Part shown: positions 19,953 through 58,020 of the stretch, in pieces
Layout of the letters: each line of letters begins with the position of its first letter
Numbering within the stretch: the first letter of the stretch is position 1
Assembly: GCA_965249725.1 (NCBI GenBank)
Contig: CBDFMQ010000002.1
Coordinates: forward strand, 704,001 to 768,000
Length of the DNA: 64,000 nucleotides
Origin: Longimicrobiales bacterium
Lineage (GTDB): Bacteria; Gemmatimonadota; Gemmatimonadetes; Longimicrobiales; Gaopeijiaceae
Reading direction: 5' to 3'
Notes under the pieces: model-generated
Databases searched by the model: none
What the model was told of the DNA's origin: nothing
What the model saw: the letters and a program-made list of their open reading frames with translations, nothing else
Translations under genes and position numbers: made by a program

Positions 19953-20453
19953 ATGGTGAAGCGTACCGCGATCATCCTGCTTCTACTCAGCGTCGTGTGG
20001 GGCTGCTCGAGTAATTCGGTGTCCCGTACCCCCATCGCTGCCGTGGCGCCGTCGCTATCCGTGGAGAGGTTCCTACAGGCGGCGAACACCCGGGATCTCC
20101 CTGCAATGGCCCGTCTGTTCGGGACCCGAAACGGACCGATGGGCGACACGGGGAGTTCGTTCGGTTGCTTCTGGAAGAAGATCGGCGCGGCCTTTGGCGG
20201 GCAGTCCTGCGTGAAATGGAGCGAAGTGGAGCTCCGCATGGACGCCATCGCGGGGATCCTACGCCACGAGGACTACCAGATCGCTGGCGAGCGCACGGTG
20301 GCTGGCACGAACGTCCAGACCATCAGGATCGGGGTCGACATGTCCTTCGCCGGAAGGCGAGAGGTGCCGAATGTCGGGTTCACTGTGGTGCTCGCCGGGG
20401 GAGATCGATGGCTCATCCAGATCATCGAGCTGGAGAGAATCACCGGCAGTTAA
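19953..20453 (+). CDS. Hypothetical lipoprotein
   Basis: Signal peptide ending VWGC, GGAG RBS. Confidence 0.7.
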   Translation: MVKRTAIILLLLSVVWGCSSNSVSRTPIAAVAPSLSVERFLQAANTRDLPAMARLFGTRNGPMGDTGSSFGCFWKKIGAAFGGQSCVKWSEVELRMDAIAGILRHEDYQIAGERTVAGTNVQTIRIGVDMSFAGRREVPNVGFTVVLAGGDRWLIQIIELERITGS

Positions 20454-20530
20454 CAGGCACCTAGCAGGCGCCTACCAGGCCCCTACCAGGCCCCTACCAG
20501 GCCCCTACCAGGCCCCTACCAGGCCCCTAG
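20454..20530. repeat. 11-bp tandem repeat (CAGGCCCCTAC) x7
   Basis: Four perfect central units with degenerate flanking units CAGGCACCTAG, CAGGCGCCTAC, CAGGCCCCTAG. Confidence 0.95.
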
Positions 20531-48147: not shown

Positions 48148-48833
48148 CTACCGCTGCGGCGTGAACAGCGCACGCACAGCACGGGCGAGGCGGCGAGCGG
48201 TAGCGACCCGAGCGACCTGCCACCCGAGTCGCTGCCTGATCAGTTCGTAGGACTGCGATAGCCAGCTGTCGGGCGCGTACGTGACGTGGCTCACGACGGT
48301 CCGGACGAAGGTGCCCCTCAGCCAACGGTTCGCTCCGGCGGGGATCGATCCGTGACGAATGGGCCGGAGACCCGACTGTGAGGAGCGTGGAGCGAGACCG
48401 GCGTAGCTGACCAGGTGGCCCGGCGTGCGAAATCGCTTGATAGGCAATGTCTCGGTGGCGATGAGCAGTGCCCGGTAGGGACCGATGCCCGGGACGGTCT
48501 CGAGCAATGCTACGGCCGGGATCTCTCGGCCCACGTGCTCGACCCTACGATCGAGGGTTTTGATCATCGGTACGATTTGGTCGATGAGAGCTCCAGGGGC
48601 TGATACTGCTGGAGCAGATCATCGAGTCGATCCTCTTGCGTGTTCTTGATCCGGATGGGTCCGGCCACCAGCTGACCCGTATTGCTCACGATGGCGATCA
48701 CCGAATACGTTGCGTGAGCATCGATTCCTGCGACAAACATGGCTGGCCTCCTTGGGTTGAGTGCCGCAGGCCTTTGAGCAAAGTTCAGCGTAACGCTCCG
48801 CTCGAGTGAGGTCAGCCCTTCGCCTTATAAGAT
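48148..48833 (-). mobile_element. Internally deleted IS1111-type (IS110 family) remnant abutting an attC right half
   Basis: ATG at 48740 gives MFVAGIDAHATYSV..PLE, fused out of frame at ~48591 to LIDQIVPMIKT..; same 13-bp IR CCTTCGCCTTATA at 48817-48829. Confidence 0.9.
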
Positions 48834-48854
48834 CAGAATCGCAATCCGTTAGGC
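48834..48854 (+). other. attC right half (L'-R', GTTAGGC)
   Basis: CAGAATCGCAATCCGTTAGGC; GTTRRRY core; complementary to left arm at 49862. Confidence 0.75.
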
Positions 48855-48886
48855 TGCACAAAACGTTCAAGCGCATCGGAGACAAG

Positions 48887-49411
48887 ATGAGGCCAAGGGG
48901 AAGAGTCCCATGCATGACCGCCCTCTTGGGTGGAGTTATCGTGCTGCTAGGTGCTTGCCAAGTCGCACCCCCAGAAAGTACGACGGACCCGCATGTGGAG
49001 GGTGGGACGGATGTGGAGCGGGGTCGATACGTGACCATCATCGGCGGCTGTAACGACCGTCATACGGATGGTTATCTCCAAGCGGAGGGGAATATCCCAG
49101 AGGATCAGTGGCTCCTCGGGTCACCCCTGGGGTGGCGCGGTCCTTGGGGCACTACCTATCCACCGAACCTCCGACTCTCGGTGCAGGGAATGGACGAGAA
49201 TCAGTGGGTCGGAATGCTCCACACACGAACCGCTCTGCCACCGATGCCCTGGATGAACACAAGCCAAATGGCCGAGCCGGACGCACGTGCTCTTTTCCGG
49301 TACATCGTTTCACTCGGGCCTGGAGGAGAGGCGATGCCTCCTGCTCTTCCCCCCGATGTCGAGCCGACGACACCGTATCTATCGTTGCTGCCCATCGTCC
49401 CAGGGAACTGA
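48887..49411 (+). CDS. Cytochrome c-like lipoprotein with broken heme motif (CNDRH); cassette-like gene
   Basis: Lipobox LGAC, ERGRY..GGCNDRHT, GPWGTTYPPNL, PPMPW. Confidence 0.7.
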   Translation: MRPRGRVPCMTALLGGVIVLLGACQVAPPESTTDPHVEGGTDVERGRYVTIIGGCNDRHTDGYLQAEGNIPEDQWLLGSPLGWRGPWGTTYPPNLRLSVQGMDENQWVGMLHTRTALPPMPWMNTSQMAEPDARALFRYIVSLGPGGEAMPPALPPDVEPTTPYLSLLPIVPGN

Positions 49412-49413
49412 TA

Positions 49414-49433
49414 AGAATCGCAATCCGTTAGGC
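49414..49433 (+). other. attC right half (left arm missing)
   Basis: AGAATCGCAATCCGTTAGGC, 20 bp identical to 48835-48854. Confidence 0.75.
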
Positions 49434-49482
49434 ACCGTTATCGTACGCGTGCTGCTCTGGAATCCTCACAAAAGGACCCAAT

Positions 49483-49839
49483 ATGTCATCTGCCGTATCC
49501 TGGAACCTTCGGGTGTCGATCAACGAGGGTCGCTTAGAAGACTTTCGCGCTCTGATGCAAGAAATGGTCGCCTCCACCGAGGGTGAGGCTGGGGCCTTGG
49601 GCTACGAGTGGTTCCTTAGCGAGGACGGAGCTTCCTGTCACATCAACGAGCGCTACACCGATTCAGACGCCGTGATGGCGCATCTGGGCAATTTCGGCGC
49701 GAACTTCGCCGAGCGCTTTCTTGGATGCGTCGCACCGACTTCAATCGATGTCTACGGTGACCCGTCAGATGAGGTCCGAGAGGCTCTCGCCGGCTTCGGC
49801 GCAGTGCATCACGGCCCGTTTGGAGGATTTAGTCGGTAG
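49483..49839 (+). CDS. Antibiotic biosynthesis monooxygenase (ABM) family protein; cassette-like gene
   Basis: E.GALGYEWF, ERYTDSDAVMAHL; AGGA RBS; between R' and next R''. Confidence 0.8.
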   Translation: MSSAVSWNLRVSINEGRLEDFRALMQEMVASTEGEAGALGYEWFLSEDGASCHINERYTDSDAVMAHLGNFGANFAERFLGCVAPTSIDVYGDPSDEVREALAGFGAVHHGPFGGFSR

Positions 49840-49861
49840 GGTCCGCTTGTCGGGCGTAGGT

Positions 49862-49927
49862 GCTTAACAAGCGATTGCTGCAGTCGCGGTAGGCATCCTA
49901 ACCGCCGCCGCTTCGCGTCCCGCGACC
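49862..49927 (+). other. attC left half (R''-L''), right arm lost
   Basis: GCTTAAC (RYYYAAC) followed by AAGCGATTGCTGCAGTCGCGG. Confidence 0.7.
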
Positions 49928-49933
49928 GGGTGG

Positions 49934-50284
49934 CTACTTCCCCGGTCGGGACCCGGCTGCCAGTTCGTACGACTCCTCTAGCCAGTTCTCCCAGACGGCT
50001 TCGGAGAGCGGCTCCTCCGCTGTGAAACGAGTCGTAACCCATCCCGTGGATCCGACTTCAAAGCGGTCCGGATGTGTGGTCGCGAGTTCCCTCGCCTTTG
50101 GCATGGATTGATCGAGCTTGAACATGGCCTTGAAGCCGCGGCCCTTGACGCCCGGTCCGATGTAGAGGAAGGCGCGCTTGCCGACCTTGAAAGCGCTCTG
50201 GTTGCAGGAGGTTCCCGGGGCGACAGCTGGAAACGCGGCAGCCTTGGTCCGAATCGTGTCGGTGGGATCAGAGTCTACAGACAT
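49934..50284 (-). CDS. MmcQ/YjbR-like protein
   Basis: AFKVGKRAFL, MFKL, GWVT, WLEESYEL. Confidence 0.6.
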   Translation of the reverse strand: MSVDSDPTDTIRTKAAAFPAVAPGTSCNQSAFKVGKRAFLYIGPGVKGRGFKAMFKLDQSMPKARELATTHPDRFEVGSTGWVTTRFTAEEPLSEAVWENWLEESYELAAGSRPGK

Positions 50285-50373
50285 GGATACGTTGCCTCCG
50301 AGTTGGGATAGGTCACGATTCCCGGGTAGGCGAGACGGGGCCTCTCTCACCGAGGGTACGCGCGGCGGGGTCC

Positions 50374-50449
50374 CCATAACAAGGAACTGCTGCTGTCGCG
50401 GTAGTCATCTGGCTCGCGCTCTCCGCCTGCGGTCACCATCTTTGCCGCG
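50374..50449 (+). other. attC left part, interrupted by IS1111
   Basis: CCATAAC AAGGAACTGCTGCTGTCGCGG...GCCGCG; joins 51915-51938 to give a ~100-bp imperfect palindrome. Confidence 0.8.
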
Positions 50450-50475
50450 ATCATCTATAAGGCGAAGGAAGTCAA

Positions 50476-50785
50476 TAGGGCGTAGCCCTCCCTTACCCGT
50501 CCGGGGTCCCGGAGGGGTGGCTCGGTCCACTGGGCTGTAGCTCAAGGCCTGCGTGATCATCTTCTAGTTTTCAAGTTCAGTACCGACGTCGCGTCCGATC
50601 TTGGGCGAGTCTCCTCTCACGAGGGCTCAGGCATCTATTCAGGTTTCGTCCCAGACGTGGGGACGTCCGAAGATCTGCTATGCGAGTGGGGGGCTCAGTC
50701 AGCAGAAGCGGGTCGTCTACTTCGAGCGACATGCGCGGCTTGGAGCTCACCCCCGTCGTGGTACGGTGCATCATGGTGTGTGATC
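50476..50785 (-). ncRNA. Candidate bridge/seekRNA of the IS1111 element (boundaries approximate)
   Basis: Target-matching 8-mers at 50732-50739 and 50700-50707 flank a hairpin inside a closing stem; donor-like motifs further 3'. Confidence 0.7.
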
Positions 50786-51823
50786 TCAGTTTAGTTGTGT
50801 CACAGGCTCATCGTGCCAGACCTCACCGGTACGCAGCATCGCGTGCACGGCGCGAGCGAGACGACGAGCGGTGGCGACCCGGGCGACTTGCCAGCCGAGA
50901 CGCCCTTTGATCTGTTCGTAGGACCGCGATAGCCAGCTGTCGGGCGCGTGCGTGACGTGGCTCACGACGGCCCGAACGAAGGTGCCCCTCAGCCAGCGGT
51001 TCGCACCGGCGGGGATCGATCCGTGGCGAATGGGCCGGAGCCCTGACTGTGAAGAGCGTGGAGCGAGACCGGCGTAGCTGACCAGGTGGCCCGGAGTCCG
51101 GAATCGTGTGATGGGCAGTGTCTCTGTCGCGATGAGCAATGCCCGGTAGGGACCGATGCCGGGCACCGTCTCGAGCAGCGCCACGGCCGGGATCTTTTGG
51201 CCCATGTGCCCGACCCTGCGATCGAGCGTTCGGATCATCGGTACGATCTGGTCAATGAGGGCCCACTGCATGTCGATGAACAGACGCCGCTCGGCTCCGA
51301 GCAGGGGCCACGCCACGTCGCGCACCCACTGGCGTCCGTTCTGGGTGAGCAAGCGCCCACGCTCCAGATGAAGCCCGACGTTGTGGATCTGGGCGTGGAT
51401 GCGGTTCACCATCCGGGTACGTTCCCTCACGAGTCTTGCCCGGTTGCGCAGAAGCACCGCTTGCTCCCGCTGCTCGATGCACTTCGGATGGACCTCGGGG
51501 ATGAGGCCTGCCAGCCGCATACGCGCCAACAACTCGGCGTCGATGTCGTCACTCTTGTAGTTGGACTCGGCGATGACGCGGAGCCGCTTGGCGTGGGCGA
51601 GCACGAAGCGGATTCCATTGCCCTGGAGTTGATCGAAGAGCCACGGCCAGGCCGGACTCGTCTCGACGACCACCTCGAGGGGGCGATACTGCTCGAACAG
51701 TTCATCGAGTCGATCCGCTTCCTTGTTATTGATGCGAGCGGGTCCGTGCACGAGCTGACCTTTGTTGCTTACGATAGCGATCACTGAATACGTTGCGTGA
51801 GCATCAATCCCTGCGACAAACAT
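50786..51823 (-). CDS. IS110-family DEDD transposase/recombinase
   Basis: GIDAH, VVETS, KSDDIDA (RuvC-like DEDD); TVPGIG, SYAGLAPRSSQSG (Tnp20 domain). Confidence 0.95.
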   Translation of the reverse strand: MFVAGIDAHATYSVIAIVSNKGQLVHGPARINNKEADRLDELFEQYRPLEVVVETSPAWPWLFDQLQGNGIRFVLAHAKRLRVIAESNYKSDDIDAELLARMRLAGLIPEVHPKCIEQREQAVLLRNRARLVRERTRMVNRIHAQIHNVGLHLERGRLLTQNGRQWVRDVAWPLLGAERRLFIDMQWALIDQIVPMIRTLDRRVGHMGQKIPAVALLETVPGIGPYRALLIATETLPITRFRTPGHLVSYAGLAPRSSQSGLRPIRHGSIPAGANRWLRGTFVRAVVSHVTHAPDSWLSRSYEQIKGRLGWQVARVATARRLARAVHAMLRTGEVWHDEPVTQLN

Positions 51824-51914
51824 GGCTGGCCTCCTTGGGTTGGGTGCCGCAGGCCTTTGAGCAAGTTCAGCGTAACGCCCCGCTCGAGTGAGGTCAGCCT
51901 TCGCCTTATAAGAT

Positions 51915-51938
51915 CAGCAGCATCGCAGTCCGTTAGGC
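51915..51938 (+). other. attC right part after IS1111
   Basis: CAGCAGCATCGCAGTCCGTTAGGC ending in GTTRRRY. Confidence 0.8.
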
Positions 51939-52004
51939 GGAACTGAAGCCACCTGCGGATCATCGATGATGAGTGTCCTCTTCTCTAAGATCGGTTGAGT
52001 TTCG

Positions 52005-52337
52005 ATGCATGTAGTTAAGGCGAGCGAGCTGCCCTTCAAGGGCGTCTCGCGACAATTCGTTGGGGAGGAGAACGGGGATGTCGGAATCTCCATCTACCTC
52101 GTAGACGCACCAAAGGACGCCGGCCCCGGGCTTCACACACATCCCTATGATGAGGTCATCCTCGTACGCCGAGGAGCGGCTCTCTACACTGTGGATGGTG
52201 TCGAGTATGAGGCCGAAGCCGGTGACATCATTGTTGTGAAGGCTGGCGAGGTGCATGGTTTCCGCAGCATCGGGGACGAGCCGCTGGTCCAAGTCGATAT
52301 CCACTTAGGGTCTCGCTTCGGGCAGCACGATCTCTAG
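52005..52337 (+). CDS. Cupin domain protein; cassette-like gene
   Basis: PGLHTHPYDE, GDIIVVKAGEVHGF. Confidence 0.85.
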   Translation: MHVVKASELPFKGVSRQFVGEENGDVGISIYLVDAPKDAGPGLHTHPYDEVILVRRGAALYTVDGVEYEAEAGDIIVVKAGEVHGFRSIGDEPLVQVDIHLGSRFGQHDL

Positions 52338-52404
52338 CGGGAGCTGCTCGCTGAAGTTCTATTCCCTGACAGGCTCTCTTGCAGCGGTGTGAAGAGGAAG
52401 AACG

Positions 52405-53367
52405 ATGATATCTCGACGTGATTGGCTTCGAATCAGCGCCGGCGCCGGCGCGGCGCTTGGTCTGAATCCGCGGATGCTGGAGGCGCTTCAGACAGGAGCG
52501 GTCCTGACCCGCGCGATCCCGTCTACCGGTGAGCAGCTTCCTGTGATCGGGCTGGGCGGCCGATGGATTTCGATGAACTCGAGTGCAGAGGAGCTCGCCG
52601 GCCACCGCGCGGTGCTTCACGCCCTGGCGGAAGGCGCCGAGGGCGTGGGGCGGGTCTTCGATAGCGCAGCTGGCTACGGTGGAGGCGGCTCGGAAACCTA
52701 TGCGGGTCAGTGGGCCCAAGAGGACGGATTCGCCGACGACATCTTCTGGGCCACGAAGGTGAATGTAGCCGGTCGAGGGGGCGGCTCGGCCGACCCTGGG
52801 AGCGTCCGGGCGCAGATCGAGCGGTCGTTTGAACGTCTCGGTGTTCCGGTGATCGATCTGAACCAGGTTCACAACATGGGCGATCCGCCCACCCAGCTGG
52901 GGATTCTTCAGGAATACAAGGAATCCGGTCGGATCCGCCACATCGGAATCACCACCACCAGCGAGACACAATACGGAGCGCTCGCCGGGGTCATGCGCGA
53001 GTACCCCATCGACTTCATCGGCATCGATTACGCCATCGACAACCGGGTGGCTGAAGATCAGATTTTCCCGTTGGCGCAGGACGAGGGGATCGCCGTCATG
53101 GTGTATCTGCCGTTCGGGCGCAGTCGGATGTGGAGTCGGATCGGTGACAGGCCACTCCCCGAGTGGGCGGCGGAGTTCGACGCGCACAGCTGGGCGCAGT
53201 TCATGCTGAAGTTCGTGGTCGCGCAACCCGCGGTCACCGTCGCGGTGCCCGGGACCGGTGACCCACAGCACATGGTGGACAATCTCGGTGGAGGCCGGGG
53301 ACGCCTACCCACGCCGGACCACCTCAAGCGAATGCTCGAACTCGTAGAGAGTCTTCCGGGCGCCTAG
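52405..53367 (+). CDS. Aldo/keto reductase with Tat-like signal
   Basis: SRRDWL; D-Y-K-H tetrad (DSAAGY, ATK, QVHN). Confidence 0.88.
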   Translation: MISRRDWLRISAGAGAALGLNPRMLEALQTGAVLTRAIPSTGEQLPVIGLGGRWISMNSSAEELAGHRAVLHALAEGAEGVGRVFDSAAGYGGGGSETYAGQWAQEDGFADDIFWATKVNVAGRGGGSADPGSVRAQIERSFERLGVPVIDLNQVHNMGDPPTQLGILQEYKESGRIRHIGITTTSETQYGALAGVMREYPIDFIGIDYAIDNRVAEDQIFPLAQDEGIAVMVYLPFGRSRMWSRIGDRPLPEWAAEFDAHSWAQFMLKFVVAQPAVTVAVPGTGDPQHMVDNLGGGRGRLPTPDHLKRMLELVESLPGA

Positions 53368-53387
53368 GCTCCGCACGCGAGGACTTG

Positions 53388-53855
53388 ATGAGTTCTTCAG
53401 CGACGGTTCGACCATCTCTTCCGCCACGAGTGGCGTGGCTGCTTCCGATCGTGCTGCTGTTGCACCAGGCAGAAGAGTGGTTCGGCGGGTTTCCGGAGTG
53501 GACGAGCTTGGCCCTGGGCCGCGGAGTTGAGCCCGAGTCGTTCCTGCTCATCAACGCAGTGGGATTCCTTCTAATTACGTTCTGGACGGTGGTGGCCTTC
53601 CGGGATCGGCGGGGCGCCTGGATCGTTGTGTCGTTCGCCGCCCTCATGGGCCTCAATGCCGTCCTGCACGCGCTTGCCACGGTACTCGTCGGTCGCTATT
53701 CGCCGGGGACCGCGACGGGCCTGTTGCTGTCTCTTCCCCTGAGCATCGCGGTACTGCGATCGTCGGCTGATGGATTGCCCAGACGTCACTTCGTCGTCGC
53801 CGCGATGGCCGGCGTCCTGCTGCACGCCATAGTGACGTTCGTAGCTCTGGGCTAG
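53388..53855 (+). CDS. HXXEE-domain membrane protein
   Basis: LLHQAEE, NAVLH, YSPG. Confidence 0.8.
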   Translation: MSSSATVRPSLPPRVAWLLPIVLLLHQAEEWFGGFPEWTSLALGRGVEPESFLLINAVGFLLITFWTVVAFRDRRGAWIVVSFAALMGLNAVLHALATVLVGRYSPGTATGLLLSLPLSIAVLRSSADGLPRRHFVVAAMAGVLLHAIVTFVALG

Positions 53856-54011
53856 AGGCGGTGCCCGCTCGCGCGCTTCACTTTCAGTCCACATCTTGAT
53901 CGCGTAGCAGAGCCGAGTCGCCGAACTGATTTGGGAGATCGGTTTGCTCTACGCCGAGACCACCGGACGCAGTGAGGTGAATCGCATGTCCGTAATGCGG
54001 GGTGGACCAAT

Positions 54012-55115
54012 ATGAAGACCTCAAGACGACATTTCCTCCAACTTGTCGCAGGCGGCGCTGCCGGAGTGGCCATGCCCGGCATCTTGGGCGCCCAACGCGC
54101 AGACCTGACCTGGCATGACGTGCGCGAGTGGGGTGTCGAAGGCAAAGGCTGGTCCGATACCAAGCGCTACTTTGATCGGTTGCCGGGCAAGGCTGAGGGT
54201 CTTGTTCGGACACCCGTCTGGGACCTCTCCCGGCACTCCGCTGGCATGACGGTGCGTTTTACAACCGATGCGCCTGCCATCCACGTCCGCTACACCCTTC
54301 TTTCCGATCGCCTGGCGATGCCGATCATGCCCGCCACGGGTGTAAGCGGGTTGGATCTCTACGCTACAGACGCACAGGGGGTAGAACGGTGGGCCGGTGT
54401 TGTGCGGCCCACAGCGCAGTCGATCGAGACCGCGATCGCCACCGATCTCCGCGCGGGGGAGCGCCGCTATACGATCTACCTGCCGCTCTACAACGGAGTC
54501 GACTCGTTGGAGATTGGCACAGAGGCCGGCACCGTGTTCGAACCGATCGTCCCGCGCCCGGAACGGCCCATGCTGTTCTATGGCACCTCGATCATGCACG
54601 GCGCCTCCGCCTCAAGGCCCGGCATGGCGATCCCGGCGCTGCTCGGTCGCAGTTTGAACCGCCCGACCATCAACCTCGGCTTCTCCGGTAACGGGCGGAT
54701 GGAGCCCGAAGTCGGCGCTCTGCTCGCCGAGTTGGATCCTTGCGTCTTCGCCATCGATTGCTTGCCCAACATGCAGGAGGCGATGGTCGAGGAACGAGCT
54801 GCGCCGCTCGTACGACAGATCCGCGAGGCGCGTCCGGACACGCCGATCCTACTTGTTGAAGACCGGTCGTTTACCAATACGCGGTTCTTTCCAGCCCGAG
54901 AGGAGCGCCATCGCACAAACCGGGAGGCCTTGCGCCGTGCTTACCGACGGCTGCAGGACGAGGGGGTGGACCATCTGTTCTATCTGCAGGGCGAACAACT
55001 GCTAGGCGATGATGGCGAAGCCGCCACTGATGGCTCCCACCCGAGCGACCTGGGGATGGTTCGGTATGCCGATGCCTATGAGCCGGCGTTGCGCGCGTTG
55101 TTGCAGCAGTACTGA
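54012..55115 (+). CDS. SGNH/GDSL hydrolase with Tat signal
   Basis: SRRHFL; YGTSI, NLGFSGNG, DGSHP. Confidence 0.85.
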   Translation: MKTSRRHFLQLVAGGAAGVAMPGILGAQRADLTWHDVREWGVEGKGWSDTKRYFDRLPGKAEGLVRTPVWDLSRHSAGMTVRFTTDAPAIHVRYTLLSDRLAMPIMPATGVSGLDLYATDAQGVERWAGVVRPTAQSIETAIATDLRAGERRYTIYLPLYNGVDSLEIGTEAGTVFEPIVPRPERPMLFYGTSIMHGASASRPGMAIPALLGRSLNRPTINLGFSGNGRMEPEVGALLAELDPCVFAIDCLPNMQEAMVEERAAPLVRQIREARPDTPILLVEDRSFTNTRFFPAREERHRTNREALRRAYRRLQDEGVDHLFYLQGEQLLGDDGEAATDGSHPSDLGMVRYADAYEPALRALLQQY

Positions 55116-55123
55116 CTATCATC

Positions 55124-56104
55124 TTGGCATCCAGGCGTGATTGGCTCGGGATGACCGCGGGCGCGGTTGCCGCGCTCGGACTGAATCCCCGGCTCCTGGA
55201 GGCCCTTCAAGGGCTCCAGAGTCGGCCGCTCATCCAACGCGCGATTCCCAAGACGGGTGAGTTGCTCCCCGTCATCGGCTTGGGAAGTGCCAACACCTTC
55301 TCGGATATGGCCCTCAGGGAGTCCCGTAGCGAAGAGTACGACACGATTGGCGCGGTCCTTCGTGCTCTTGTCGAAGGGGGCGGCACCGTGTTCGACACGG
55401 CCTACGGATACGGCGCGAGCGAGCAGGTCTCAGGTCAGGTGGCGCAGGAACTCGGTTTCGCCGACCGCGTCTGGTGGGCGACCAAGGTCAACGCCGCACG
55501 CGTGAGTGGCGGGGCCAGTGGTGCGGCCGACCCGGCAGCGACGCGCTATCAGATCCAACGCTCCTTCCTTCGCCTGCGCCTGCGGCAGATCGACCTCCTC
55601 CAGGTCCACAACATGGGCGATCCGCCGACGCAGCTCGCCATCCTGAAGCAGTTGAAGGCCGAGGGGTTCGTCCGCTACATCGGCATCACGACCACCTTCG
55701 AGGGCCAGTACTCGGCGCTCGTCGACGTCATGCGGAGCGAGCCGATCGACTTCATCGGCATCGACTATGCGGTCGACAACCGCGCGGCCGAAGAGGTCAT
55801 CTTTCCCCTCGCGCTCGAACGCGAGATCGGCGTATTGGCCTACCTCCCGTTCGGCAGGGACAGAATGTGGGCACGGATCGGCGACCGTCCGCTCCCGGCT
55901 TGGGCGGCCGACTTCGACGCGCACACTTGGGCGCAGCTCATGCTCAAGTTCGTGATCGCACACCCGGCGGTCACTGTGGCCTGTCCGGGGACGAGCGACC
56001 CCGAGCACATGGCCGACAACCTCGGCGCGGGGCGTGGGCGGACTCCGCACCGTGATCAGCTGGACCGGATGATTCGCCTCGTGGAGGGCCTACCCGCGGG
56101 CTGA
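55124..56104 (+). CDS. Aldo/keto reductase with Tat-like signal (paralog of 52405)
   Basis: SRRDWL; DTAYGY, ATK, QVHN; long identical blocks with the first copy. Confidence 0.85.
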   Translation: MASRRDWLGMTAGAVAALGLNPRLLEALQGLQSRPLIQRAIPKTGELLPVIGLGSANTFSDMALRESRSEEYDTIGAVLRALVEGGGTVFDTAYGYGASEQVSGQVAQELGFADRVWWATKVNAARVSGGASGAADPAATRYQIQRSFLRLRLRQIDLLQVHNMGDPPTQLAILKQLKAEGFVRYIGITTTFEGQYSALVDVMRSEPIDFIGIDYAVDNRAAEEVIFPLALEREIGVLAYLPFGRDRMWARIGDRPLPAWAADFDAHTWAQLMLKFVIAHPAVTVACPGTSDPEHMADNLGAGRGRTPHRDQLDRMIRLVEGLPAG

Positions 56105-56109
56105 GAGTC

Positions 56110-56171
56110 GATTGCTGCAATCGCGGCAGACGTGTGTTCGCGCACTCCGCGCGCGGTCACCATCTTGGCAG
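56110..56171 (+). other. Degenerate attC fragment (L'' + central region)
   Basis: GATTGCTGCAATCGCGGCAG...TCGCGCACTCCGCGCGCGGTCACCATCTT aligns with the attC at 50374. Confidence 0.7.
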
Positions 56172-56208
56172 TGCATACACGATGTCAACCCAACACGGGG
56201 ACCTCAAT

Positions 56209-56389
56209 TATGAATCCGATCGCTGCCTCCAAGGGGACCAATACGGGAGAGGGCGGCCCCGGTGCTCCGACCGGAAACAAGGTCGAGACCGACTACGTCT
56301 ACGTGATGGAGTTCGACGGTGATCGAATCCGCCATATGACGAAGATCTGGAACGACGGCTTCGCCATGCGCCAACTGGACTGGGGTTAG
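56209..56389 (+). pseudogene. C-terminal remnant of a SnoaL/ester-cyclase-like gene
   Basis: GTNTGEGGPGAPTG..TDYVYVMEFDGDRIRHMTKIWND; N-terminal half absent. Confidence 0.55.
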
Positions 56390-56454
56390 TCGGGCACGTG
56401 ACATCGTGAGTGCCCAGGTAGGCGGAGGGGCGTAGTAGGCGAGGCGAGCGCTCC

Positions 56455-56874
56455 CTAGTCTCGACGGGAGGAGATCATCCGAACGGCCCGGACTTCCTCA
56501 CCCCACGGCGCGATGTTGGTCATTTGTAGGACCAACTCGCCTGTCGGCGTCCGCAGACTCAATCCCGTGCGCCAACCCCAGTCAGACTCGGGGCCGTACA
56601 GGCCCTGCACCTGGAACATCCCTGAGGCGTCCCCGAGCGAACGACAGGTCATGGGCTCCGGCTGATGCCAACTGTCTTTGAACTCGGCACCTTCGTCGCT
56701 CAACGTGATGCTGCCCAGGTGGGCTTCCCCCTCGTAGCTCCAGGTGTAGCGAACGACGTGGCCGTCGATGGAAATCGTGCAATCGCTGCGCACGACGTCA
56801 TCGCCGAGTGGGTCGAGCCAGAGCTCCGCCGTACCGGCCCAATGCGTTCCATCGATGTCTGAGAGTGGGTTCAT
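56455..56874 (-). CDS. Hypothetical beta-rich protein (DUF1579-like)
   Basis: W.GT.ELW, YTWSYEG, DSWH, WGWR, MTNI. Confidence 0.6.
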   Translation of the reverse strand: MNPLSDIDGTHWAGTAELWLDPLGDDVVRSDCTISIDGHVVRYTWSYEGEAHLGSITLSDEGAEFKDSWHQPEPMTCRSLGDASGMFQVQGLYGPESDWGWRTGLSLRTPTGELVLQMTNIAPWGEEVRAVRMISSRRD

Positions 56875-57057
56875 GCCCCGATAGTAGTTCTCGCCCACAT
56901 CGGTCGCTACCGTCCGCTAGGCCTCCTGCTCGCGCACGAACACGCTGTTCACTATCTCGAGATCGTAACGAGATTCCCGGGCACGGGAAGATCGCTATCT
57001 ACATCCATGGTGGAGTGGAGCAGGGGCTGTGGCAGGTCCCATGAGCCGTCGGGTTGA

Positions 57058-57768
57058 CTACGACCCCGCTGGCTCATCGACGTCCGAGCGGGCTCCCAGT
57101 TGCTGGAGCGCTGCGGCCCAATCCAACAAGTCTCGCTCTCCCTGTGGCGAAAGCACGTAGTGGCCCTTCTTCACGCGATCGAACCACCCGTAGTGATTGT
57201 CGAGCAGTATCCGCCCGGCCCGCGTTACGCCGGTACGTTCCACTAGCACGCTCACTTTGAGGATGCCCTCATCCGCGAGTTGCCGGGCGCAGCGTAGGGC
57301 GTCCTGGCGGTAGGCGGTCAGCCGCTGTCGAGACGATGAGCCGCCATCCTCAGGATCCCCGACCCGCTCTGCGAACTCCCTGAGCAGGCGCTCGCGGCGG
57401 GCCGCTTGTGTTCTGGGCCGATACGGTGCGGGGTCCAGCACCGGTACGACGTTGCCGCGCGCCGAGACCGTGAGGAGGCCTACACCCAGTCGGCGAAGGA
57501 GGCGGGTGACCTGCTTCTTCCGGGTGCGCCATGAGGCACTGTGGCCCTTCCCGATTCGAAACGCCACGTAGACCGTGTCGGCGAAGGCGAGCCGGTCGAC
57601 CGCCTGTAATATGAGTGCCAGGCTCAGGCGCTCCTTCAACTCCACGACAACCGGCCCTTCATCGCCTCGTACGGCCATGACGTCGCAGGCTCCGATCTCT
57701 CCCTTCACCACGTAGCCCTGTGCCTCCAAGAACAGCTTGATTGGGCCGTAGAGATCGGCTTCAGCCAT
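57058..57768 (-). CDS. DUF2161 putative PD-(D/E)XK phosphodiesterase
   Basis: E.DLY.P, VKGEI..CD, VVELK, LQAVDR, TAYRQDAL, NHYGWF. Confidence 0.85.
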   Translation of the reverse strand: MAEADLYGPIKLFLEAQGYVVKGEIGACDVMAVRGDEGPVVVELKERLSLALILQAVDRLAFADTVYVAFRIGKGHSASWRTRKKQVTRLLRRLGVGLLTVSARGNVVPVLDPAPYRPRTQAARRERLLREFAERVGDPEDGGSSSRQRLTAYRQDALRCARQLADEGILKVSVLVERTGVTRAGRILLDNHYGWFDRVKKGHYVLSPQGERDLLDWAAALQQLGARSDVDEPAGS

Positions 57769-58020
57769 ACGCGTCCATCCTGGGGATCCCTCCTCCAGCG
57801 CTCGTTGCAGGTTCTCGAGTGCACGGATGGCCCGTGCGACCGATGCGTGATTCTACCGGGACACGGAACGTGCAGTCCAGGTTGGCCATGTGCCGACCAC
57901 TGCGAAGCTCCCTGACGAGGGGCCGCTCGAATCGCCCGGGGGACACCCGTCTCGCGCGCTTCGGTCGTGGCCCGCATGTTGGTCGCGGGTGGACGCCACC
58001 GGCTAGCTATGGCCGGGGTA

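Follow-up and report, generated by a model that had tools for sequence, protein, structure and literature searches.

An IS1111-type insertion sequence in a Gemmatimonadota genome that very probably carries an RNA guide pair programmed for integron attC sites

Our analysis indicates that positions 50452-51916 of the window, on the minus strand, are an insertion sequence (IS) of the IS1111 type which very probably carries, in the non-coding region 3' of its transposase gene, a seekRNA or bridge RNA programmed for attC, the recombination site of integron cassettes. The window is the whole stretch of 64,000 nucleotides analysed here (assembly GCA_965249725.1 of a Longimicrobiales bacterium, contig CBDFMQ010000002.1, positions 704,001 to 768,000). 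The element is 1.46 kb long and sits inside an attC site of a decayed cassette array. A preliminary description, made from the letters of this DNA, had read here two 8-letter guides around a hairpin within a closing stem, overlapping on a CA core, and had proposed to look for covariation of the two 8-mers with the insertion flanks of homologous elements. All the letters that it quoted were found at their positions on the minus strand, the stems around and between the guides show compensatory changes, the CA core recurs in the loops of relatives, and guides and flanks do covary.

Guides and insertion flanks

The seekRNA/bridge RNA's target-binding loop extends over 50688-50754 (minus strand, as all loop coordinates below). 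Its closing stem, GGGGG-UGA-GCUC / GAGC-CCCCC, consists of GGGGG (50754-50750), UGA (50749-50747) and GCUC (50746-50743) on the 5' side and of GAGC (50696-50693) and CCCCC (50692-50688) on the 3' side. Guide 1, GCCGCGCA (GCCGCG-CA, 50732-50739), equals the bottom strand of the right flank plus the core and is the equivalent of the right target guide (RTG) in the terms used for IS621; guide 2, UUCUGCUG (UUCUGC-UG, 50700-50707), equals the top strand of the left flank plus the core and is the equivalent of the left target guide (LTG). Between them lies the inner hairpin GUCG..CGAC (50712-50730, with GUCG at 50730-50727 and CGAC at 50715-50712), the loop of which is 6 nt longer than in most relatives. 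The region has the features by which a seekRNA or bridge RNA is recognised: two guides for opposite target strands that overlap on the core (CA, which is TG in the transposase sense), in a loop closed by a conserved stem. The order of the guides, with the top-strand match 5' of the bottom-strand match, is that of the IS1111 type and is reversed compared to IS621, a reversal of IS1111 elements that is described in a passage of Siddiquee et al. (2024, PMC11187229).

Related elements were collected by a protein-seeded scan of genome contigs (35 loci, 48-91% amino acid identity), a protein-seeded scan of metagenome contigs (79 loci) and a DNA search of 201 genomes of the window's family, which gave matches in 20 of them including the genome of the window (G000; 4.16 Mb, 3 contigs, 64% G+C). 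A pattern search over the related loci found 111 loops and gave none at the loci L041 and L066. These 111 loops have the scaffold [GA]A[GA][CT]UC - guide 1 - UGUCGC..GACGAC - guide 2 - A[CU]UGAGCCCCC in common, and the guide stretches within it vary freely. The six letters before the core of each guide were compared with the six letters adjoining the core in the corresponding flank, for 53 guide classes with one insertion each. Of 270 positions compared in 45 classes, the reverse complement of guide 1 agrees with the right flank of its own insertion at 224, whereas foreign flanks give 2.23 of 6. For guide 2 and the left flank of its own insertion the agreement is 181 of 240 positions in 40 classes, and foreign flanks give 2.26 of 6. 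On neither side was the observed agreement reached by any of 20000 permutations. The test is conservative because classes with one guide in common were retained. The low guide-1 scores of three loci (L059, L135, L141) are one-nucleotide register artefacts, with CC-U instead of CA in the RNA, and were also left in the counts. The same outcome had been obtained in an earlier run with 22 classes. As for the core, guide 1 ends in CA in 103 of the 111 loops and guide 2 ends in UG in all of them; among the flanks of the relatives, 74 of 75 left flanks end in TG and 84 of 89 right flanks begin with TG.

One would argue that the 8-mers resemble the flanks by chance or through a common GC-rich, palindromic, attC-like sequence, and that the stem-loop is a terminator-like structure. 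This explanation, to which we give next to no credence, is already refuted by the permutation tests on either side of the 53 classes. Two of the relatives, L047 (guide UUUCACCA-CA, flank TG-TGGTGAAG) and L058, have wholly different guide pairs that match correspondingly different flanks, and loops identical to that of the window are found elsewhere in a target that agrees with the guides at all 14 positions.

Conservation of the loop as an RNA

Pairing within the loop was evaluated on an alignment of 59 distinct loops (A1) for the named structure of three 4-bp helices, that is 12 pairs and 708 cells. Standard pairs fill 99.0% of these cells, compared with 40-51% when the partners are slid by 1-3 columns, and the covariation score was reached by none of 500 shuffles. 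Changes on both sides occur in 4 of the 12 pairs (23 cells); the hairpin pair 30-47, which is U-A in 42 sequences and C-G in 17, is a compensatory change of this kind. The stems contain G-U pairs on the transposase strand only, and on the opposite strand these would be A-C mismatches. Pairing that is kept through compensatory changes, together with the G-U pairs, is therefore the signature of a single-stranded RNA with the polarity of the transposase strand.

This signature stands against the alternative that the region acts as DNA, either because the transposase aligns the double-stranded non-coding region through short homologies or because the region is a picked-up copy of the target. The same is true of the co-purification and reprogramming of the RNA published for the family (in parts of PMC11187229 and PMC11208160). 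What can be said for the DNA alternative is that two contigs from RNA libraries (X15 and X16, see below) may be DNA, and that the guide-coding DNA seems to be recombinogenic in one relative. At the locus L044 (2840-3140; the same place as L158, G058) the non-coding region contains a 248-nt tandem duplication that runs from the first letter behind guide 2 (..TG/ACTGAGCC) to the right end plus TG, and it looks as if the guide-coding DNA had been a recombination site itself. An insertion into the loop of a resident copy was considered for this locus and rejected, as there is one transposase gene and the 248-nt duplication is internal. Taken together, a role of the region as DNA appears very improbable to us.

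The predicted target and its natural variants

The two guides together specify the 14-mer GCCGCG-CA-GCAGAA, which the preliminary description had given as the target, and other copies and alleles bear this prediction out. On a metagenome contig (L079) with a transposase that is 95% identical in amino acids and a loop that is identical to the letter, the flanks are GCGATTCTGC-TG and TG-CGCGGCTAATG on the two sides of the IS, which gives GCCGCG-CA-GCAGAA at 14 of 14 positions. Another genome of the family (L153) has the loop of the window and the same right flank as L079 (TG-CGCGGC). Run X2 contains a 99%-alike copy (14 differences in 1477 nt), the left flank of which, ..TTAGCCGCG, ends in GCCGCG and is directly followed by CATCTATAAGG. 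A 5227-nt contig of run X1 joins window position 50449 to 51915 and skips 50450-51914; the empty allele of the window site is therefore ..TTTGCCGCG/CAGCAGCATCGC.. (GCCGCG/CAGCAGC), and this pre-insertion site is matched by guide 1 at 8 of 8 and by guide 2 at 7 of 8 positions.

The window copy itself reads, on the plus strand, ..GCCGCG-AT-CA, then the IS (TCTATAAGG...AAGAT) and then CA-GCAGCATCGCAGTCCGTTAGGC; its left flank in the transposase sense, GATGCTGC-TG, agrees with guide 2 at 5 of 6 positions beyond the core. These are the flanks that had been read before, and the two extra nucleotides noticed at the left junction, AT at 50450-50451, are real. Since sister copies lie in the exact target and the empty allele is available, the AT is a junction anomaly of the window copy and lies outside the target; it was gained at insertion or soon after. 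The same two letters come after the core where the ends are joined (right end-TG-AT...), and an off-register exchange on one strand may have been the source of the AT.

Retargeting in nature is seen among the relatives. The sister lineage of the L033 type (90% amino acid identity, many copies) has the guides GCGCGCAG-CA (GCGCAG-CA) and (A)GAUUC-UG, and its insertion site, GCGCAG-CA-GAATCGC, is the same attC arm 3 nt further along. A degenerate relative in the window (48166-48836, minus strand, about 87-88% identical) lies with its end at 48836 at such an L033-type site, shifted by 3 nt (..AAGAT-CA-GAATCGCAATCCGTTAGGC), of a neighbouring attC. In this relative about 410 nt are deleted internally and the 3' non-coding (guide-RNA) region is lost. 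Other lineages have guides for other attC families, for instance ..GCATTTAAGC-TG.. with TAAC upstream. A less closely related subfamily, from soil metagenomes (L098-L130, 58-62% amino acid identity), has the same loop scaffold, a GCCG..CGGC hairpin and ..CCTC-TG-CG.. targets without TAAC, which are apparently repeats other than attC.

The transposase and the ends of the element

The transposase gene (50786-51823, minus strand) is an intact open reading frame (ORF) of 345 amino acids and is assigned to the RNA-guided DEDD recombinases of the IS110 family. The translation matches the Pfam domains DEDD_Tnp_IS110 (PF01548, 56 bits) and Transposase_20 (PF02371, 60 bits) as well as the NCBIfam model NF033542, 'IS110 family RNA-guided transposase' (196 bits, cut-off 140); the DEDD assignment is one by domain matches. 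It also contains AGLAPRSSQSG, an instance of GL-P----S(T)G, which a passage of PMC11187229 gives as the motif of IS1111-type transposases.

The insertion sequence with both core copies and the extra AT occupies 50450-51916 on the minus strand, with the body at 50454-51914 and the CA cores at 50452-50453 and 51915-51916. The ends are fixed by a second, near-identical copy in the genome (L002, contig C3, 2273762-2275225), because the two resident copies have window 50452-51915 in common. The left end (51898-51914, minus strand; ATCTTATAAGGCGAAGG in the transposase sense) and the right end (50454-50468, minus strand; CCTTCGCCTTATAGA) carry subterminal inverted repeats, CTTATAAGGCGAAGG / CCTTCGCCTTATAG, which lie a few bases inside each end, are conserved in the relatives and fall within the 7-17 bp of IS1111 elements. 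The non-coding sequence measures 333 nt after the stop codon of the transposase gene and 91 nt before its start codon; a short left end, a long right end and long subterminal repeats are the IS1111 layout according to a section of Durrant et al. (2024, PMC11208160). The subterminal repeats, the 333-nt downstream non-coding region and the GL-P----SG motif thus identify an IS1111-type element, as it had been classified from the outset.

The attC site and the integron context

The right-flank motif ATCGCARTCCGTTAGGC has 26 copies within 2 mismatches in the genome, compared with none for the reversed control. Where no element interrupts them, the sites form imperfect palindromes of about 100 nt, which run from GCCTAAC to GTTAGGC and contain ..TTGGTCGCG-CA-GCAGAATCGCAATCC... 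A profile built from 18 genomic sites (nhmmer, E up to 1e-3) gave 35 attC-like matches in the genome, many of them in clusters with a spacing of about 700 bp (e.g. C3:824054-829471 and 1530708-1533052). An integron integrase at C3:1028977-1029906 (TIGR02249, 335 bits, cut-off 265; 0 of 14 control genomes above the cut-off) adjoins four attC sites. Judged by sequence, the palindromes of the form R''(RYYYAAC)-L''...L'-R'(GTTRRRY), their cassette-spaced arrays and the IntI of the same genome appear to be those of an integron, and the position of the repeat family next to an integrase above the TIGR02249 cut-off bears out the earlier proposal of an attC target. Integrons in Gemmatimonadota are on record (in part of PMC8618304).

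In the window, the 5' part of the interrupted attC (R'' and L'' arms and centre) lies at 50376-50449 on the plus strand (nhmmer C3:754376-754449, profile positions 4-77 of 100, E 4.8e-14) and the 3' part (L' arm and R' core GTTAGGC) at 51917-51938 on the same strand, with ATCGCAGTCCGTTAGGC at 51922-51938. Since the left part covers profile positions 4-77 of 100, the insertion falls between profile positions 77 and 78, at the L' arm's inner edge and about 24 nt from the 3' (R') end. Of 51 distinct left flanks among the relatives, 18 carry TAAC (the R' core inverted) with its end 14-18 nt ahead of the IS end; at all other offsets the motif turns up only 3 times.

The array around the element (window 48800-58000) is decayed and 275 kb away from the integrase. 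It retains partial attC matches at 49863, 50376, 53865 and 56108 and R' halves at 48838 and 49417, and behaves like an attC cluster without an integrase of its own. Five cassette ORFs exceed the gathering cut-off of a Pfam family (ABM, cupin, aldo/keto reductase, HXXEE, GDSL lipase). All five have the plus-strand sense of the attC top strand, and the transposase gene on the minus strand is antisense to them.

Evidence against the guide RNA and the state of the resident copies

Several observations, on folding, on target sites, on the junctions of the resident copies, on the donor side and on transcription, weigh against the reading of the loop as the guide pair of an attC-programmed RNA. Folding had been proposed as a check from the beginning. 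The 71-nt loop alone does reproduce the closing stem and the hairpin; its energy is no better than that of shuffled sequences (z -1.48, 19 of 200 shuffles as good). Longer folds gave z of -0.38 and -0.47 (-0.69 in one further fold), and in them the guides pair with neighbouring sequence. Thermodynamics thus does not carry the case for the loop. A scan of 49500-52500 against Rfam with E up to 1 yielded no IS110/IS1111 RNA family, only a chance snoRNA-like match on the other strand. The genome contains no perfect match to the 14-mer, because the attC consensus has GTCGCG and not GCCGCG. Sites within 1 mismatch of the 14-mer number 18, of which 16 are attC (12 flagged by script and 4 with variant L'/R' arms recognised by eye), and the reversed 14-mer also gives 18; therefore the number of sites is no enrichment, and it is the identity of the matching sites that counts. 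The unremarkable folds, the equal control and the poor in-register matches of both resident copies on one or both sides are the points that favour the chance explanation refuted above.

The resident copies deviate as follows. In the window copy the AT lies between the guide-1 target and the core, and guide 1 matches at 2 of 6 positions in register and at 6 of 6 after a 2-nt shift. The second copy is out of register in a long variant of attC, where either side matches at 3 of 8 positions, and has about 1 extra base; its empty allele in run X1, ..CTTAGCGGCG-CA-GAGCC.., pieced together from 30-letter contig ends and the lack of listed indels, suggests that the element lies 3 nt left of that CA. 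Neither resident copy has a canonical junction, compared with more than 40 canonical relatives.

These junctions bring up the alternative that the loop is a genuine guide RNA gene and the window copy is a trapped relic, in which the extra AT breaks the guide-1-side pairing that is needed for excision. The inserted segment of 1465 nt, where 1463 nt are expected for body plus core, the in-register guide-1 match of 2 of 6 at the present right junction and the likewise non-canonical second copy are consistent with entrapment. However, the window copy has an intact transposase ORF and a near-identical second copy, and the insertion is polymorphic in the sampled population: run X1 contains the empty alleles of both resident loci, and filled and empty alleles occur in one run. 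Near-identical copies together with empty and filled alleles in the same run mean recent activity. Moreover, RNA and protein could act in trans on other copies. We consider entrapment possible but rather unlikely, and it would bear on the mobility of one copy and not on the nature of the loop.

On the donor side, a candidate donor-binding loop is located at 50590-50645 (minus strand). It comprises AAUAGA-UG (50639-50632), which equals the right IS end plus the core, a hairpin and AAGAUC (50602-50597), and corresponds to a second conserved stretch, ..AAACCUGAAUAGAUG-CCUGAG..hairpin..CUCG-CCCAAGAUCGG.., at about 50645-50590 of the window. Of 48 distinct elements, 40 have a 5' strand that agrees with right end and core at 7 of 8 positions, and in 46 this strand changes together with the last base of that end (A/A 11, G/G 32, C/C 3; the exceptions are L058 and L143); as there are few independent changes among these related sequences, this lends modest support. 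The 3' GAUC shows no covariation with the left end (ATC or ACC) and stays GAUC in 9 elements with the left end ACC, which makes this half of the loop uncertain; GAUC could pair with the left-end TG-ATC through a G-T wobble. In the circular donor, the joined IS ends are probably held by this second loop.

As to transcription, the contigs X15 and X16 come from RNA libraries of different studies and cover the non-coding region and the gene of relatives that are 90-95% alike and have L033-type flanks. They span IS-attC junctions, give no information on RNA ends or strand, and may stem from carried-over DNA. Therefore, we infer transcription of the guide region from what is established for the family.

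In the mechanism that we favour, the 3' non-coding region would encode a seekRNA/bridge RNA whose loop at 50754-50688 would present both guides, each of which would include the TG/CA core, the presumed site of strand exchange by the DEDD/Ser recombinase. The guides together would specify GCCGCG-CA-GCAGAA at the inner edge of the attC L' arm, and the second loop would hold the joined IS ends of the circular donor. By analogy with the family (described in parts of PMC11187229 and PMC11208160), the region would be transcribed, the RNA bound by the transposase and strand exchange directed by pairing. With guides that specify an L'-arm site, the element would thus home to the cassette recombination sites of integrons, antisense to the cassette genes.

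Relation to known systems

The mechanism itself is not new: seekRNAs and bridge RNAs, including those of attC-targeting members, were published in 2024. Passages of Siddiquee et al. (2024, PMC11187229) show seekRNAs of 82-96 nt, as well as longer forms of about 154 nt, from the non-coding regions of ISEc11, ISPa11, ISKpn4 and ISPst6; these seekRNAs co-purify with the transposase, carry top- and bottom-strand target matches and are reprogrammable. Passages of the same paper name ISKpn4, ISPst6 and ISPa25 as elements that target attC, and their seekRNAs are published. Bridge RNAs are predicted in 93% of IS1111 elements, in the right end, according to part of PMC11208160. What is new here is a very distant lineage, an insertion point close to the 3' end of attC, a rich series of natural retargeting and aberrant junctions with their empty alleles. 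In the literature searched, we found no paper on attC-targeting bridge-RNA elements in Gemmatimonadota.

The window element resembles the group of IS1111-attC elements (ISKpn4, ISPst6, ISPa25, ISPa21) in its subterminal repeats, in the non-coding region downstream of tnp, in a short RNA loop that matches the target twice, on the top strand 5' of the match on the bottom strand, and in the attC target; for ISKpn4 and ISPst6 this comparison is with the published description. The antisense orientation to the cassette genes is also alike, as far as part of PMC3001079 describes it; there, the known elements (ISPa21, ISPst6 and relatives) form a monophyletic subgroup that inserts near the 5' end of attC, antisense to the cassettes. 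In contrast, the window element enters about 24 nt from the 3' (R') end, whereas one passage of that paper places the known group near the 5' end, and its host belongs to Gemmatimonadota, whereas those of the known group are Proteobacteria. Among 72,556 plasmids, nothing is more than 34% identical to the transposase, and the listed enterobacterial and ISEc11-family matches are at about 23-24%. An identity of at most 34% to plasmid-borne relatives argues against close kinship with the IS1111-attC subgroup, as far as identities rather than a tree can tell.

Among proteins of solved structure, the ISCro4 transposase alone was recovered as a relative by sequence (E 0.0047, C-terminal domain). To the IS621 bridge RNA, as presented in parts of Durrant et al. 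(2024, PMC11208160), the window element is similar in its two internal loops, each with two guides for opposite strands around a 2-nt core that is in both pairings, and in a DEDD recombinase with a C-terminal Ser-Gly motif. The right-donor pairing of IS621 is short there (2 bp plus core) and resembles the short, non-covarying GAUC of our candidate donor loop. Unlike IS621, which has its RNA in the left end, the window element encodes it in the right end after tnp, the guides are in reversed order with the RTG equivalent first, the core is TG rather than CT, and the subterminal inverted repeats are long. A natural redirection is described for ISEc11 and ISXne4 in a passage of PMC11187229: close relatives keep the stem and change the guide letters, and the insertion sites shift in step. 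The series presented here is of the same kind but much larger (53 guide classes), and it includes a 3-nt register shift within one attC at 90% transposase identity.

The lineage had been called little studied, which is fair: 34 of the 35 genome loci are titled as metagenome-assembled genomes (MAGs) of Gemmatimonadota or Longimicrobiales, and one as a 'Deltaproteobacteria' MAG. It could be that an independent, deep-branching, IS1111-like radiation in Gemmatimonadota has specialised on attC and that its guides co-diversify with the local attC 'dialect', through 3-nt shifts and the choice of other attC families. Loose strand exchange would leave trapping junctions with one or two extra nucleotides, and the parasitism on attC would have had a second, convergent origin at the opposite end of the site. 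We put this forward tentatively, as an idea that is plausible but short of probable.

If this idea is true, the elements would form a series reprogrammed by nature, with a recombinase that is only a distant relative of those studied. The finding as such adds no new principle and is a clean case legible from sequence alone: scaffold and guides of a recombinase very remote from IS621, ISCro4 and ISEc11 are mapped by natural covariation over 53 guide classes. It also provides evidence that such elements colonise the attC sites of environmental integrons at the 3' arm, which matters for the interpretation of cassette arrays and of integrase-less attC clusters in MAGs. The two aberrant junctions with their empty alleles could inform on the strictness of the core register.

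Other observations

The repeated left-flank sequence was at one time considered as the N-terminus of a paralogous gene family, which was rejected after full attC sites had been aligned. At the integron integrase (G000:C3:1022196-1029906, L068), the integrase gene and the top strands of the four adjoining attC sites are on the same strand; the integrase is thus co-directional with the cassettes and not divergent. In the decayed array of the window, a minus-strand ORF matches YjbR just below the cut-off (29.3 vs 30.1). The degenerate piece at window 48166-48836 is duplicated at G000:C3:4956-5626. Finally, a tandem array with an 11-nt unit, TA[AC]CAGGC[CG]CC-like and in about 8 copies, lies at window 20440-20529.

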